Position numbers and translations under genes: made by a program
The notes under the pieces: generated by a model
The model's input: the letters and a program-made list of their open reading frames with translations, nothing else
The model's database searches: none
Told to the model about the DNA's origin: nothing
Part shown: in pieces, positions 18,293 through 36,690 of the stretch
Position numbering within the stretch: the first letter of the stretch is position 1
Layout of the letters: the number at the start of each line of letters is the position of its first letter
NCBI GenBank assembly: GCA_049297495.1
Contig: JBAQUL010000010.1
Coordinates: forward strand, 12,881 to 76,880
From: Candidatus Moraniibacteriota bacterium
GTDB lineage: Bacteria > Patescibacteriota > Minisyncoccia > Moranbacterales > UBA2206
Reading direction: 5' to 3'
DNA: 64,000 nucleotides

Positions 18293-18473
18293 ATATCCTC
18301 CTCGCCCCTCGGGAGAGCCTGCCTGCCGGTAGGCAGGGATGTCCGAAGGACAGGTGAGAGGAAGGGTAATATTAATTAGTATAAGCGTTATATCATAGGG
18401 AATAAAAAAATTTCAAAAGCCCTTTCCCTCATCCGGCCTTCGGCCACCTTTTCCCGGAGGGCGAAGGGGATAT
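18293..18473. mobile_element. MITE-like composite palindromic element, copy 1 (CCCCTCGGGAGAGCCTGCCTGCCGGTAGGCAGGGATGTCCGAAGGACAGGTGAG ... CCTCATCCGGCCTTCGGCCACC...CCGGAGGGCGAAGGGG)
   Basis: About 180 bp intergenic element whose two arms are imperfect inverted repeats. Two further full copies lie at 27617-27800 and 36531-36690. Confidence 0.55.
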
Positions 18474-18484
18474 AAATAAAAATT

Positions 18485-20344
18485 TCACTCCTTTATAAAT
18501 TCCGAAATTGCTTCCAATATCCCTTCCTCATCCAACCCCACCTCCGCCAAAATTTCTCCGCGCATGCCATGAGAAAGAAACTCGTCCGGCAATCCTAGGT
18601 TTTTAATTCTAACATTCAGCCCGGCTTTCGCAAAAAATTCGTTCACGGCACTGCCTGCTCCACCCATAACTACATTATCCTCAACTGTTACAAAATATTG
18701 ATGCGTCTTGGCTAATTCCCGCAATAGTTCCTCATCAAGCGGCTTGATAAATCGCATATCCACAAGTGTTGCATCAATAGCCTCCGCCGCTTTCTTGCTC
18801 CTGCCAAGCATTGTCCCAAAAGCTAAAATTGCGACGTCTTTTCCCTCTCTCGCAACCTTAGCCTTGCCAATTTCAATCGGCTGACTCTTTTTCCCGCCAC
18901 ATCCGCAAAGATTAGCGCCCTTAGGATAACGCACCGCTGCCGGCCCGGGGTAATTGTAACCAGCTTCCAACATCGCATAACATTCATGTTCATCTGAAGG
19001 CGCCATGACAATGAGATTTGGAATGATACGCAGAAATGACAAATCAAAACTGCCTGCGTGTGTTGCACCATCTGGACCGACAATTCCAGCGCGATCAATT
19101 ACAATCAGAACATCCAGATTAGGCAGAGCGATATCATGGATAAGTTGATCATAGCCACGCTGCAAAAATGAGGAGTAAATCGCCACAATCGGCTTCTTGC
19201 CTTGAAGGGCTAGTCCAGCTGCAAAAGTCAAAGCGTGTTGTTCAGCAATCCCCACGTCATGATAACGCTTAGGAAATTTTTCACTAAAATTAATCAGGCC
19301 AGATCCACTACCCATCGCCGGAGTAACAGCATGCAAGCTTAATTCTTTTTTGGCTTTTTCGCAAATCCAATGGGCGAAAACGTCAGTATAGGCGATATTT
19401 TTAACTGAGCCGTTTTTCTGTCCAGTTATCGGATCAAAAGGCGTAACCGCATGCAAAGAAAAATTATCTTTTTCCGCCGGAGCATATCCCTTGCCTTTTT
19501 TCGTAATCACGTGCAAAAAGCGTGGACCCTTTAATTTTTTCAAATTTTCCAAAACCTCCAAGAGTGTTTCCGTATCATGCCCGTCAATCGGTCCATAATA
19601 TTTAAACCCCAATTCTTCAAACATTGTTCCTGGTGTAATCACACCTCTTGCCTGAATTCCTGCGCGATGGACCAATTTTTGAACAGTCGGCATATTTCTC
19701 AGAGCCTCCAAACCCTTATCGCGCAAATTCACATAAGCAGGAGATGAAATAAGCCTTGTTAAATACTTTTCCATTCCGCCCACATTAGGTGAAATCGACA
19801 TCTTATTGTCATTCAGTACGACTAAAATATCTGCCTTGATGTCCCCCGCATGATTGAGCGCTTCAAACGCCATCCCACCACCAAGTGCTCCATCACCAAT
19901 CAGAGCAATAACGCAAGGCGCATTTTTTTTATTTCTATTCGCGACTGCCATTCCTGTTGCCAAACTAATTGAGGTGCTTGTATGTCCCGCGTTTGAAGTG
20001 TCATATTCGCTCTCCTCTCTTCTGGGAAAAGGCGCAAGACCTCCTTTTTTTCGAATTGTAGCAAGTCGACTCTTCCGCCCTGTAAGAATCTTATGTGCGT
20101 ACGCCTGATGTCCAACGTCCCACAAAAGCAAGTCTCTGGGCGCATCAAAAATATAGTGCAATGCTACAGTCAGTTCAATCACGCCAAGATTCGATCCGAG
20201 ATGCCCACCACTCTGTGCCACGCTTTCAATCAGAAAACTGCGAATTTCTTCACAAAGTTTCGGCAACTTTTCTCTAGGAATTTTTTTCAAATCCCGCGGA
20301 AAAGCAACTAAGTCTAATATTTTTTTCACCTTATTCTTTGTCAT
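18485..20344 (-). CDS. dxs: 1-deoxy-D-xylulose-5-phosphate synthase
   Basis: GGHLGSNLGVIELTVALHYIFD...LWDVGHQAYAHKILTGR TPP-binding pattern; 619 aa. Confidence 0.9.
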   Translation of the reverse strand: MTKNKVKKILDLVAFPRDLKKIPREKLPKLCEEIRSFLIESVAQSGGHLGSNLGVIELTVALHYIFDAPRDLLLWDVGHQAYAHKILTGRKSRLATIRKKGGLAPFPRREESEYDTSNAGHTSTSISLATGMAVANRNKKNAPCVIALIGDGALGGGMAFEALNHAGDIKADILVVLNDNKMSISPNVGGMEKYLTRLISSPAYVNLRDKGLEALRNMPTVQKLVHRAGIQARGVITPGTMFEELGFKYYGPIDGHDTETLLEVLENLKKLKGPRFLHVITKKGKGYAPAEKDNFSLHAVTPFDPITGQKNGSVKNIAYTDVFAHWICEKAKKELSLHAVTPAMGSGSGLINFSEKFPKRYHDVGIAEQHALTFAAGLALQGKKPIVAIYSSFLQRGYDQLIHDIALPNLDVLIVIDRAGIVGPDGATHAGSFDLSFLRIIPNLIVMAPSDEHECYAMLEAGYNYPGPAAVRYPKGANLCGCGGKKSQPIEIGKAKVAREGKDVAILAFGTMLGRSKKAAEAIDATLVDMRFIKPLDEELLRELAKTHQYFVTVEDNVVMGGAGSAVNEFFAKAGLNVRIKNLGLPDEFLSHGMRGEILAEVGLDEEGILEAISEFIKE

Positions 20345-20387
20345 ATTTCATCACGTCATAGTCCCGTCTTAGCAAAACAAAGGAGAA

Positions 20388-21050
20388 TCACACAATTTCG
20401 CTCAAAACCTTTTTCAAACCTTCCACTACCTTCCTATTCTTCCGCAATGCGGAAATTGCCACTGTAATATCCTCGGTTTTCTGGGAAAGACTAAGTTGCT
20501 TAGAAAGGAATATTCGCACTGATTTTTCATCAGGTTTTTTTTCAATATACTTGGCCAAAACAGCATACCATAAAACAAATGTCGGTCGGTCTGCTTTGAT
20601 TTCCAAATTAACCAAAGGCGGATTTCGAAAATAGTTCGCTAATTTTTCCCAATTGTTATAGTAATCATACAGCAATTCATCTTCTAAAAACTTTGCAGGA
20701 TGCCCAAATAATTCGGTCGTCTTTTCTAACTTAAAGAAACCCTGCGCATTAAGAATTTCATCGCGCCGCATATCACAATAGAGATGAAATTTCCAACCAG
20801 CCTCAAAAGATGTCAGCCCAGAAAAATTCAGATCAAGCGGTTGAAATTTCAAATGCGTATCCTTTCTTTTGATGCTCGGCTCAATTCTTCTGATGTCCGG
20901 GAAAACCGAACCTAATAAAAACTCATCTCGATTAATCTTATGATTGCGGTTTATTTTTTCTTCATCTAAAAAATCTTTATCGGTCTTTCCGTTTTCAATC
21001 TTGTCGAAATATTTTTTTGCATAAACTATATGCGCGATTTGAGATGCCAT
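20388..21050 (-). CDS. Hypothetical protein (220 aa)
   Basis: Clean ORF with ATG start; conserved-looking His/Asp positions (GSVFPDIRR, FHLYCDMRRDE) but family not recognised. Confidence 0.45.
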   Translation of the reverse strand: MASQIAHIVYAKKYFDKIENGKTDKDFLDEEKINRNHKINRDEFLLGSVFPDIRRIEPSIKRKDTHLKFQPLDLNFSGLTSFEAGWKFHLYCDMRRDEILNAQGFFKLEKTTELFGHPAKFLEDELLYDYYNNWEKLANYFRNPPLVNLEIKADRPTFVLWYAVLAKYIEKKPDEKSVRIFLSKQLSLSQKTEDITVAISALRKNRKVVEGLKKVLSEIV

Positions 21051-35451: not shown

Positions 35452-35472
35452 AATACAAACAGCATTATACTT

Positions 35473-36477
35473 ATGCCAAACATTGATTATCTAAAAATTT
35501 TCCGCGACGCTTGGAAAATAACCTGGAAAAATCGCTTTTTGTGGTGGTTTGGCTTTTTCATGCTGGCTTCTGGAGGATTAAATTATAACTATTTCTCTTC
35601 CGGAGACGAAAAGCCTCAAAAAGACTGGCAAGCTTTCACTGAAAAAATCAATTTGCAGCAATTTCTCTTAGAACATACCACATTTATAGCAATTGGGATA
35701 ACTCTATTGGTCATACTCTTTCTTGTTTTTTTGATTTTAAACTTTATCGGACGAGGAGCATTAATCAAATCAATCCAGAGAATACTCAAGAAAGAACCTG
35801 CCAGTTTTAAGTCTGGATTCCAAGATGGAAAAAAATATTTTTGGAGCATATTCTCTATCTTCTTTTTTTCAGGATTATTCATTTTCATTTGCTTTATTGT
35901 CCTTTTTACGCCAATCGTAATTTTATTTCTGGCTAAATCCTATATTATTGGAACAATCCTTGCAATCCTTGCTCTAGCAATCATCATTCCTTTGGTTATC
36001 CTAGCGAAATACATTCAGTCCTACGCAGGCTACTATGTTGTTTTAGCTAATTTAAGACCTTGGCTTGCAATAGAGAATGCCTACGCCCTTTTCAGAAAAA
36101 ACATACTGACCAGTATAATCATGTCCCTGCTCTTTATTCCTATTGGAATTTTTTCAATTTTCATTGTTGTAGCAATCGCTCTAGTGACCCTGCTTATTTT
36201 TGGCCTCATTGGTTTAGTTCTATTTTTCACCATAAAAGATACTGGTGTGATTATCGCCGTCGCGCTAGGATTACTATTCTTTATTCCAGCAATAACTCTT
36301 TTCTATTCGATATTTAGCGCATTTTCTGAAGTTGCCTGGGTTTTGTTTTTTCATGTCATTGCGACGCCGAAAGAAAAGGAAAAAGTTGCAGAAAAACTAT
36401 TGGAAACAAAAGAGAAAGTTTCAGTCCTCGCAAATACAGATGCGATGAAAACTATTGAAGCTGAAAATAAAGAGTGA
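35473..36477 (+). CDS. Hypothetical polytopic membrane protein
   Basis: At least 6 predicted TM helices; no catalytic motif recognised. Confidence 0.45.
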   Translation: MPNIDYLKIFRDAWKITWKNRFLWWFGFFMLASGGLNYNYFSSGDEKPQKDWQAFTEKINLQQFLLEHTTFIAIGITLLVILFLVFLILNFIGRGALIKSIQRILKKEPASFKSGFQDGKKYFWSIFSIFFFSGLFIFICFIVLFTPIVILFLAKSYIIGTILAILALAIIIPLVILAKYIQSYAGYYVVLANLRPWLAIENAYALFRKNILTSIIMSLLFIPIGIFSIFIVVAIALVTLLIFGLIGLVLFFTIKDTGVIIAVALGLLFFIPAITLFYSIFSAFSEVAWVLFFHVIATPKEKEKVAEKLLETKEKVSVLANTDAMKTIEAENKE

Positions 36478-36530
36478 TTTTGACGGGAAAGTTTTTTTAC
36501 GGTAGGCTTAATAAGTTGATAAGCTTGCGA

Positions 36531-36690
36531 AATATCCTCCTCTCCCCTCGGGAGAGGATGTCCGAAGGACAGGTGAGGGCAAGGGCTATAAAATCAAAGA
36601 TAGTCCGAATAAATTAATTCTGGCTTAATTTAACACTCTTACCCTCATCCGGCCTACGGCCACCTTCTCCCGAGGGGAGAAGGGAAAATA
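36531..36690. mobile_element. MITE-like composite palindromic element, copy 3
   Basis: ATATCCTCCTCTCCCCTCGGGAGAGGATGTCCGAAGGACAGGTGAGGGCAAGGG ... CCCTCATCCGGCCTACGGCCACCTTCTCCCGAGGGGAGAAGGG; arms are inverted repeats; located immediately upstream of a tRNA pair. Confidence 0.55.

Follow-up and report, generated by a model that had tools for sequence, protein, structure and literature searches.

What are the three hairpin elements that lie between the genes of a 64,000-nucleotide stretch of Candidatus Moraniibacteriota DNA (contig JBAQUL010000010.1, positions 12,881 to 76,880), and how did they come to be there? This stretch, taken at its full length, is called the window below, and its host is a genome of the Candidatus Moraniibacteriota, part of the candidate phyla radiation (CPR). 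Its dxs protein shows 100% identity to that of a Candidatus Moraniibacteriota metagenome-assembled genome, encoded on a contig of about 120 kb. We read the elements as members of a high-copy, non-coding and non-autonomous repeat family of the Moraniibacteriota, in which two inverted triplex-motif modules, the alpha and beta arms, enclose an AT-rich core of 50-75 nt and which probably spreads as folded single-stranded DNA (we give this reading a probability of roughly 0.65). The description that suits them best is BoxC/triplex-motif doublets in a CPR variant, with a REPIN- or BIME-like organisation, and not miniature inverted-repeat transposable elements (MITEs), the class favoured by a preliminary description of the window. 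That description was largely right in regarding the family as mobile and non-autonomous, and it missed the membership of the arms in the BoxC/PIT/TM_ECO family.

The three elements (165-190 bp) and their named modules are verified in the window sequence, where a repeat search links their parts in both direct and inverted orientation. A degenerate pattern for a single arm matches five times, against 0.00 matches expected from 100 dinucleotide-preserving shuffles. All copies follow one fixed, asymmetric plan: an alpha arm, an AT-rich core of 52-54 nt and a reverse-complemented beta arm. The orientation of copy 2 is flipped relative to copies 1 and 3. Each arm comprises a pyrimidine block, a loop, a purine block, a mini-hairpin and a mirror purine block. 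In the common orientation, the alpha arm reads ATATCCTCCTCTCCC-CTC-GGGAGAGGA-TG-TCCGAAGGA-C-AGGTGAGGG-CAAGGG and the beta arm ..CCTTCTCCC-loop-GGGAGAAGG-T-GGCCGAAGGCC-G-GATGAGGG-nAAGGG. In short form, the alpha arm of the window copies is ..CTCCCCTCGGGAGAG-GATGTCCGAAGGACAGGTGAGGGCAAGGG and the beta arm ..CTCCCCTCGGGAGAA-GGTGGCCGAAGGCCGGATGAGGGnAAGGG. Folded as single strands, copies 1, 2 and 3 reach z-scores of -6.2, -3.5 and -8.2 against shuffles; each folds well beyond chance. The nearest-neighbour folding behind these scores does not model triplexes.

The arrangement of the blocks places the arms in a known but unexplained class of bacterial repeats. The module contains a 9-nt pyrimidine block, a loop of 3-4 nt and the complementary purine block, likewise of 9 nt; a second purine-rich block then mirrors this one. 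Set against the purine strand of the first hairpin (GGGAGARGG), the sequence GGRTGAGGG that follows the mini-hairpin is a mirror image and neither a repeat nor a complement. By their sequence, the arms are a variant of the class II intrastrand triplex motif BoxC/PIT/TM_ECO of E. coli (Bergler 1992; Hoyne and Maher 2000; Holder et al. 2015, PMC4666352), which has been known since the 1990s and forms an unusually stable DNA triplex in vitro. TM_ECO, present in 23 copies in E. coli K-12 (for example CCCTCGCCCCTTTGGGGAGAGGGTTAGGGTGAGGGG), yields a stable triplex by circular dichroism and nuclear magnetic resonance, with a melting temperature of 70-82 C (PMC4666352). It is found in more than 260 genomes, in intergenic positions, without strand bias and without a link to a transposase (PMC4666352).

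In both families a 9-nt pyrimidine block precedes its purine complement, and a 9-nt mirror purine block with one T follows. The blocks of the window arms (TCCTCTCCC/GGGAGAGGA/AGGTGAGGG and CCTTCTCCC/GGGAGAAGG/GGATGAGGG) agree with those of TM_ECO (CCCTCTCCC/GGGAGAGGG/GGGTGAGGG) in 8 of 9 bases per block, with one co-varying triad differing in each arm, and the G-type modules of other phyla are identical to TM_ECO (9/9). Class II triads (C-G·G, T-A·A, T-A·T) fit at 9/9 positions of both arm types. A T->G variant of the pyrimidine block (CCCTCGCCC), called 'mm', is common to TM_ECO and the window arms 1L, 1R and 2L; this recurrent change is never compensated, as in the E. coli 'mm' copies.

The second loop sets the two families apart. 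In E. coli it has 3 nt (TTA or CCG), whereas in the present variant it is a GNA mini-hairpin of 11-14 nt or a longer hairpin. Mostly it consists of a GNA triloop closed by C-G (GGCCGAAGGCC, GTCCGAAGGAC, ..GTA.., ..GGA..); the alternative is a 14-nt hairpin (TCACG-AGCA-CGTGA). Including flanking bases, loop 2 measures 12 or 17 nt. Hairpins of the d(GCGAAGC) type, with a GNA loop, are exceptionally stable in DNA, and such mini-hairpins are a feature of DNA rather than RNA. Since loops in the published ITxF search were restricted to 1-6 nt (PMC4666352), modules of the present type fall outside it and are filed here as a variant.

Co-variation identifies which folds are conserved. With the variable positions left free in the search, 389 modules show the combination (Y3,R7,T3) as T-A-A (182), C-G-G (178) or T-G-G (26), with 3 others, so that the free positions are concordant in about 99% of modules. 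Three haplotypes retain the mirror relation along with the Watson-Crick partner, and the alpha type has an additional T-A-A triad at position 1/9. The mini-hairpin has only G..C (89) or T..A (18) at its variable pair, all four combinations having been allowed. The stems of the alpha loop 2 occur as TCACG/CGTGA, TCGCG/CGCGA, TCATG/CATGA and TCTCG/CGAGA, and the long version shows A-T, G-C and T-A at one stem position. For the first hairpin (hairpin A), 107 modules have 99 different apical sequences, which form 2.1 extra pairs compared with 0.44 after shuffling. Co-variation preserves the local hairpins as well as the three-block triads.

The two arms of a doublet vary independently: their loops are complementary in 5 of 20 copies, where 3.9 are expected. 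The conserved units are therefore the local folds and not a long hairpin between the arms, even though the latter is the predicted minimum-energy fold; the second-loop hairpins of the two arms also differ in length. Kaplan et al. 2016 (PMC5100583) interpreted the same E. coli sequences as a switch between G-quadruplex, hairpin and duplex, and observed that the two subtypes tend to lie on opposite strands near operon 3' ends. As a reason for the mirror symmetry, a G-quadruplex fails to explain the joint change of both inner tracts.

The module is widespread. The 28-nt arm core (GAGAR-GRTGKYCGWAGGMCRGRTGAGRG) has exact matches at 120 or more genome loci, isolate genomes included. These belong to Planctomycetota, Verrucomicrobiota (including Akkermansia), Acidobacteriota, Desulfobacterota, Chloroflexota, Bacteroidota, Armatimonadota, Melainabacteria, Firmicutes and the CPR, to Alpha-, Beta- and Gammaproteobacteria (Mesorhizobium, Rhizobium, Shinella, Caulobacter, Lysobacteraceae), and to Geobacteraceae, Thermodesulfobacteriota, Binatia, Vampirovibrio, Heliobacteriaceae and Acetothermia. 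The variant with the GNA mini-hairpin is present in at least 12 phyla. The complementary pyrimidine block, which lies in the flanks and outside the search pattern, is always present, so the matches represent a real family and not chance. In other phyla the module stands alone, forms tail-out pairs or makes up a tandem array. The array (locus L061, 1590-2200, a Planctomycetales metagenome-assembled genome) follows a gene end directly and has four units, each about 150 nt long and with one beta-type and one other triplex-type module arranged tail-out.

No protein family recurs beside the module among 3,923 open reading frames (ORFs) clustered around the 120 listed loci. A phage vector was considered and rejected, with only 15 matches in 2.9 million viral contigs. 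Literature searches on the exact arm sequences, on peptides that they could encode, on other arm types, on REPIN/RAYT and on CPR repeats returned no description of the motif; 10-13-mers of the simpler variant, unlike the exact arm sequences, match published BoxC/TM sequences.

Within the Moraniibacteriota the elements are numerous. A metagenome scan with the pattern alpha-tail, 50-75 nt, beta-tail recovers 81 loci, and together with the loci of the window and of four relatives there are 85 distinct copies. Twelve lie on a single contig of 322,649 bp (Ga0172380_10000027), about one per 25 kb, in agreement with the three per 64 kb of the window. The overall density is about one per 20-25 kb, an estimated 40 copies per Mb in an AT-rich CPR genome of roughly 1 Mb. 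In related genomes the arms are nearly always paired (83 alpha+beta pairs and very few solo arms), and several core subfamilies have the same arms. Three-armed forms exist at L155, L160, L164, L171 and L205, and a partial duplication, for example, at L157; numbers from L122 to L221 denote related loci, fragments that total about 1.9 Mb. A Logan contig from the same organism stops within copy 1, as expected of a repeat. A multi-copy, intergenic and non-coding family with inverted arms is thus borne out by both window and metagenome copies. Lack of further copies and perfect conservation of orthologous spacers, which the preliminary description had named as signs of a conserved regulatory structure, are clearly not what is found.

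Orthologous sites provide evidence for mobility. Four relatives, whose dxs is 84-87% identical, keep the dxs-fhs gene order. The dxs-fhs spacer contains the element in the window and, without the nested palindrome B (see below), in L123; L124 lacks it, and in L122 and L125 the spacer harbors two other kinds of palindromic element with GC-rich arms and an AT-rich core. Three further orthologous sites are polymorphic, being filled, empty or otherwise occupied: Lactamase_B/small-ORF, folD/97-aa and the 97-aa/tRNA-Leu promoter. When empty, as in the window, L122 and L125, the last of these shows a TAA followed directly by the -35 box TGTTTGCCA; in L167 a whole element, including about 30 nt past the beta arm, is inserted between TAA and box, and the junctions show no TA duplication. 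The ortholog of copy 3 is filled in L193. Furthermore, the dxs-fhs copy of L123 has a core that matches copies at the unrelated loci L145 and L189 with 96% and 95% identity, and the five cores most similar to that of the orthologous window copy (0.73-0.83 identity) do not include it. Near-identical cores at unrelated loci, unlike that of the ortholog, indicate that the unit is copied to new places or that gene conversion among the copies is intense.

The other palindromic families are side observations in their own right. The second, with arms TGTCATTCCCGCGnAGGCGGGAATC, is found in the window at 1733-1940 and 53326-53359, in L125 at 11900-12110 and in L123 at 17245-17430. The third has arms GTCATTCTGAGCG...GAAGAATC (L122). 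In relatives, both occupy the same sites after stop codons as the alpha/beta elements.

The elements land or survive almost exactly 3' of stop codons, in either orientation. The median distance from the element end to the 3' end of the neighbouring gene is 1-4 nt, and among 70 copies for which both neighbouring ORFs were called, only 5 have divergent gene starts on either side. The ends themselves are short inverted termini of the form ATATC...GATAT(AAATAAAG). Aligned on their arms, the copies show A-T-A-T/G-C at the left end, and at the right end G-A-T-A-T followed by a conserved A-A-A-T-A-A-A-(G); of 75 copies, 53-68 agree at positions +1 to +8 and 42-51 at +9 to +12. The terminal inverted repeats are accordingly ATATC(C/T)TC... 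and ...GGGGATAT, and elements so delimited measure 144-190 bp. A copy-specific target-site duplication is not detected across 108 offset pairs and six lengths with shuffled controls (best z about 2.3 in more than 600 tests). Given the polymorphic sites, the 96% identical cores elsewhere, the proximity to stop codons and the lack of a detectable target-site duplication, the elements are therefore mobile or recently mobile, and non-autonomous.

How such a unit might move can be outlined. Its functional form would be folded single-stranded DNA, comprising a hairpin, a mini-hairpin and a purine-motif triplex, that would be exposed in replication or transfer. Copying may take place in trans by an HUH/Y1-like enzyme that acts on folded single strands; alternatively, a polymerase might stall at the triplex and switch template. 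At their resting sites the elements would be mostly selfish or neutral, with possible side effects on mRNA 3' ends or on the promoter of the next gene.

The search for a mobilising enzyme covered all fetched DNA. A screen of 7,760 ORFs for HUH/Y1 motifs yields a single candidate, at L145 6894-7396 (Pfam Y1_Tnp, E = 1.9e-5). This RAYT-like gene encodes 167 aa with the motifs LNHLHL (HUH) and YIHNNP, and the region (L145 6851-7460) is flanked on both sides by an inverted REP, GGAACGGGTTTGCAACCCGTTCC / GCAGGAACGGGTTTGCAACCCGTTCC, which differs from the arms and occurs six times in related loci. RAYT-type enzymes thus exist in these genomes, and in the roughly 1.9 Mb of fragments covered none is linked to the element family; a cognate gene may lie elsewhere. 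The IS200/IS605-type mobiliser that had been suggested for it is unsupported. In the window, no transposase is seen by the HUH motif screen or among the annotated neighbours, Pfam not having been run on every window ORF.

Several points weigh against the overall reading given at the outset. The sole Y1_Tnp/RAYT-like gene in about 1.9 Mb of related fragments has a different REP beside it, and no other mobilising enzyme was found there. Exact insertion junctions are undefinable, as the genomes with filled and empty sites are only 80-95% identical in their flanks, and an invariant duplication of TA or ATAT could not be told apart from the inverted termini. Three haplotypes underlie the triad co-variation, and these could be three master copies that spread horizontally instead of independent compensations. 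Triplex folding of the variant with a hairpin loop is a prediction from sequence, and in E. coli in vivo footprinting with dimethyl sulfate detected no triplex (PMC4666352). Finally, almost all data are metagenome-assembled genomes and metagenome contigs.

Three other explanations have to be compared with spread as folded single-stranded DNA. The first dispenses with a dedicated enzyme: hairpins and triplexes would provoke stalling, template switching, gene conversion and illegitimate recombination, and in this way spread and lose the doublets. TM_ECO loci are indeed linked to local genomic instability and are rearrangement hot spots, and PIT elements stall DNA polymerase in vitro (PMC4666352). 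The free re-assortment of arms and cores among copies, the partial duplications, three-armed forms and tandem array described above, the lack of a target duplication and the repeated arrival of various element types at the same post-stop-codon sites would all be accommodated. However, whole units with conserved ends and 95-96% identical cores lie at unrelated loci, which template switching alone explains poorly if the new site offers no homology, and an exact 20-nt palindrome (called B, see below) recurs at many different kinds of site. We regard this explanation as unlikely.

An ordinary cut-and-paste MITE is, in our estimate, quite unlikely. It would have ends ATATCCTCC... and derive by deletion from an insertion sequence with a DDE transposase (for example IS630/Tc1-like and TA-duplicating), the GC-rich hairpins having become its terminal repeats by chance. 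A length of 165-190 bp, an AT-rich core, several core subfamilies with the same ends (as in MITE subfamilies) and presence/absence polymorphism all suit this model, and the TA of the ATATC...GATAT terminus could mask a constant TA duplication. Nevertheless, no copy-specific duplication appears at any offset or length, and the filled and empty sites compared for L167 lack a TA duplication at the junctions. No arm pair surrounds a transposase-sized insert and no transposase recurs in the approximately 1.9 Mb of related DNA; nor is an autonomous insertion sequence with the same ends present in the window or in L122-L221, which are fragments only. Moreover, other phyla have the arms as single units, in tandem or tail-out, and for the BoxC/TM family no transposase link was found in E. 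coli. A MITE in the strict sense is not supported, neither a copy-specific target-site duplication nor an autonomous parent with these ends having been found.

It is very improbable that the elements are cis-regulatory structures passed on vertically (terminators, stabilisers of mRNA 3' ends or genes for small RNAs) and not mobile DNA: the position directly 3' of stop codons, the strong folding and a conserved TATAAAT-like box at the right end would favour it, but orthologous sites are empty in close relatives, both orientations relative to the upstream gene occur, no copy has a T-run or a match in a terminator scan (the terminator role once proposed for them is unsupported), no Rfam family fits, purine-motif triplexes are not formed by RNA (PMC4666352) and GNA mini-hairpins are likewise DNA features, and the E. 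coli PIT elements lack promoter and terminator activity according to earlier work as cited in PMC4666352. Rfam, searched at gathering and at E<=1 thresholds in the window and three foreign loci, returned only tRNAs and chance sub-threshold matches. A ribozyme, hammerhead-like or other, was considered for the three-way junction form and rejected for its few conserved unpaired bases and for the lack of an Rfam match.

Separately, the conserved extension at the right end, GATATAAAT(A)AA(G), is similar to a -10 box. Its version in copy 3 (36685-36699) has the sequence TATAAT 6 nt before the 5' end of tRNA-Val, and at many copies the ATG of the next gene lies 14-22 nt past the arm. The extension could be an outward promoter or a target preference.

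Comparison with known repeats helps to position the family. It shares with BoxC/PIT/TM_ECO an intergenic location without strand bias, a wide phylogenetic spread, the lack of a linked transposase and inverted pairs of two subtypes, with inward tails, a few bases past a stop codon. Table 1 of Holder et al. (PMC4666352) contains five inverted A+B pairs. One of them, an inverted B+A pair in the E. coli hrpB-mrcB spacer, begins 13 nt past the stop codon, with tails inward and a 16-nt spacer; its layout is that of the CPR doublet in miniature. Differences concern the spacer of paired motifs (an AT-rich, subfamily-specific core of 50-75 nt here, about 16 nt in E. coli), the defined outer terminus (ATATC...GATATAAAT), the density of about 40 copies per Mb, the clear insertion polymorphism and the nested secondary palindromes.

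REP, BIME and REPIN sequences are likewise extragenic, GC-rich short palindromes of high copy number, arranged as inverted doublets of two subtypes (compare Y and Z REPs) around a linker; they too lack target duplication, and single units look like decay products. A RAYT-like gene is present in related genomes, as in REPIN/RAYT systems, yet it is flanked by the other REP. In contrast to REPINs, neither hairpin has an unpaired GTAG or CGTC tag beside it (the criterion of PMC3733652). REP families are lineage-specific, whereas the arm core is identical across phyla and each arm consists of two hairpins plus a third-strand block. With bacterial MITEs such as Correia/NEMIS, RUP, ERIC and the enterobacterial RU, the elements have in common a size below 200 bp, inverted ends, an AT-rich interior, intergenic location, subfamilies and the ability to form a long hairpin. 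They differ in having no detectable target-site duplication, no parent insertion sequence, and arms that are independent pan-bacterial modules.

A wider hypothesis is tentative, and we would sooner doubt it than adopt it: BoxC/triplex-motif doublets might form one pan-bacterial mobile class, propagated as folded single-stranded DNA without target duplication, with the triplex under selection and the nested palindromes as a second tier. If true, the mobile class would span from E. coli to the CPR. The concerted changes between T-A·A and C-G·G, in two triads, hundreds of modules and at least 12 phyla, would, for the first time, provide comparative evidence of in vivo selection on the purine-motif intrastrand triplex itself, beyond the Watson-Crick hairpin. 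Palindromes of 20-30 nt in hairpin tips, a parS centre and a tRNA T-loop would represent a second, smaller tier of structure-targeted mobility. The Moranbacteria family is a much cleaner natural system than E. coli: an AT-rich genome sharpens the boundaries, there is about one copy per 20-25 kb, and it offers filled and empty sites, several core subfamilies and a variant second loop as a built-in structural perturbation. The mobility of BoxC, its unit of movement and selection on the third strand are now testable. In practical terms, these repeats break short-read assemblies of CPR genomes and create spurious or extended ORFs.

The individual copies of the window can now be described. Copy 1 (alpha arm, core and reverse-complemented beta arm on the + strand) spans 18293-18482, that is, 18293-18473 plus a conserved extension to about 18482. 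Its alpha arm (18293-18366, + strand) comprises the pyrimidine block CCTCGCCCC, a loop, GGGAGAG, a nested B palindrome, GATG, the TCCGAAGGA mini-hairpin and the third block AGGTGAGAGG. The beta arm (18420-18473) has its triplex-motif strand on the - strand and is followed by the conserved extension GATATAAATAAA (18469-18480). With the dxs stop codon at 18485-18487 and the fhs start at 18222, this copy lies downstream of dxs and upstream of fhs. The preliminary description had placed it downstream of fhs, and had misassigned two of the three gene contexts in all.

Copy 2 (27616-27803) is inverted, with beta arm, core and reverse-complemented alpha arm on the + strand. It overlaps the 3' end of a Wzy_C membrane-protein ORF (27728-29776, - strand), which reads into the element, and lies upstream of a HAD gene whose start is 84 nt to the left. 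Its alpha arm (27744-27803, - strand) has the longer loop-2 hairpin TCACGAGCACGTGA. The Wzy_C ORF ends in L124 right at its last parS palindrome (1870-1881), and in the window (27728-27830) and in L122 (2250-2340) it runs into the alpha arm for about 25-30 further codons, so that the protein was extended and its stop codon replaced by the insertion. Copy 3 (36532-36699) lies 3' of a 334-aa ORF and directly upstream of tRNA-Val. It consists of the alpha arm (36532-36585), the core (36586-36637) and the reverse-complemented beta arm (36638-36684), without a nested B, and after 36684 the extension AAAATATAATAATTC reaches tRNA-Val at 36700.

The elements are themselves targets of smaller palindromes, nested at hairpin tips and junctions. 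The 20-nt palindrome B (CCTGCCTGCCGGTAGGCAGG) fits precisely into the junction of an arm's two hairpins. In copy 1 it occupies 18318-18337 of the alpha arm and is missing from the orthologous element in L123; in copy 2 it occupies 27642-27661 of the beta arm, a junction that is also occupied in L142, L144, L183, L193 and L209. Being present in copies 1 and 2 and missing from copy 3, B is a separate, secondary insertion, which agrees with the earlier proposal of an independent nested unit. At the alpha-arm junction B is found in copy 1, L193 and L215, and a distinct 30-nt palindrome takes the same junction in L156, L167, L170 and L199. A further palindrome lies within the mini-hairpin loop in L167 and L187, and in L169 one B sits exactly in the tip of another B. 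The identical 20-nt sequence is found at many types of site.

Two solo palindromes of the window are real, with coordinates slightly different from those first given (7600-7620 and 30335-30355). The B-like CCTGCCTACCAGCAGGCAGGC lies at 7589-7609, within a hairpin-rich insert that adjoins a duplicated tRNA-Gly 3' fragment, and the B palindrome CCCTGCCTGCCGGCAGGCAGGG lies at 30332-30353, in the T-loop of a partial second tRNA-Arg copy. In addition, GC-rich hairpins of 20-30 nt split the centres of 5 of 13 CACGTG palindromes (AATTGTTCCAC / GTGGAACAATT) within 28131-29353, at 28131-28182, 28202-28253, 28736-28787, 28998-29040 and 29302-29353; in the L124 ortholog all palindromes are unsplit. The presence of B and related hairpins at tips, junctions, a tRNA T-loop and parS-like centres shows that small units insert at hairpin tips and junctions.

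Both tRNA fragments deserve a description. The partial tRNA-Arg(CCT) copy (30300-30370) extends from the end of the D-arm to the 3' end and begins 12 nt past the intact gene (30216-30288); B takes the place of CG in its T-loop (GGTT[C..G]ATTCC). In the region 7486-7680, the tRNA-Gly 3' end and its downstream hairpin (7701-7754) are duplicated at 7486-7539, and the duplicated fragment breaks exactly in the T-loop. On its 3' side follow about 125 nt rich in GC hairpins, including the B-like palindrome, and an inverted T-arm-like GATTCCCC.

The split palindromes belong to a larger cluster. Between 27810 and 29394, within the Wzy_C ORF, there are eight perfect 16-bp palindromes TGTTCCACGTGGAACA, which we take to be parS-like, and the five hairpin-split copies. 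The parS of B. subtilis is TGTTCCACGTGAAACA. All lie in frame in a single Wzy_C (O-antigen-ligase-like) gene that adjoins gyrA, and they encode FHVE/STWN/PRGT peptides. The cluster is kept in L122 (11+3), L124 (12) and L192 (9+5), and nearly all of 120 Wzy_C homologs have 2-13 such peptides, in a word-based search that favours peptide carriers. As in the Rickettsia palindromic elements, palindromic units reside in a protein-coding gene with the frame kept; unlike these, the palindrome is perfect, of parS type and confined to one gene next to gyrA, and the cluster looks like a centromere. It may be a centromere embedded in a membrane-protein gene.

Two DnaA-box-like sequences TGTGGATAA lie at 29438-29446 and 29491-29499, towards the 5' end of the Wzy_C gene. 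At about 29.8 kb (29777-29896) the genes diverge in orientation, and the GC skew changes from negative to positive over 30-34 kb and then returns to around zero or negative. A replication origin region may adjoin the parS cluster.

Two further repeats of the window complete the picture. A 33-nt inverted repeat, AAATTCTATAGAGACACATTTCAATGCGTCTTG, is located at 22834-22981 between divergent CCA-adding-enzyme-like and Lactamase_B genes; its halves are 91% complementary and 82 nt apart, and it is unrelated to the triplex arms. A GC-rich segment of 31 nt, GGTTCCCTCCAAAGGCGGGCCGGCAGATCAG, at 14953-14983 recurs in inverted orientation 15 kb away, at 30148-30178, beside the tRNA cluster.

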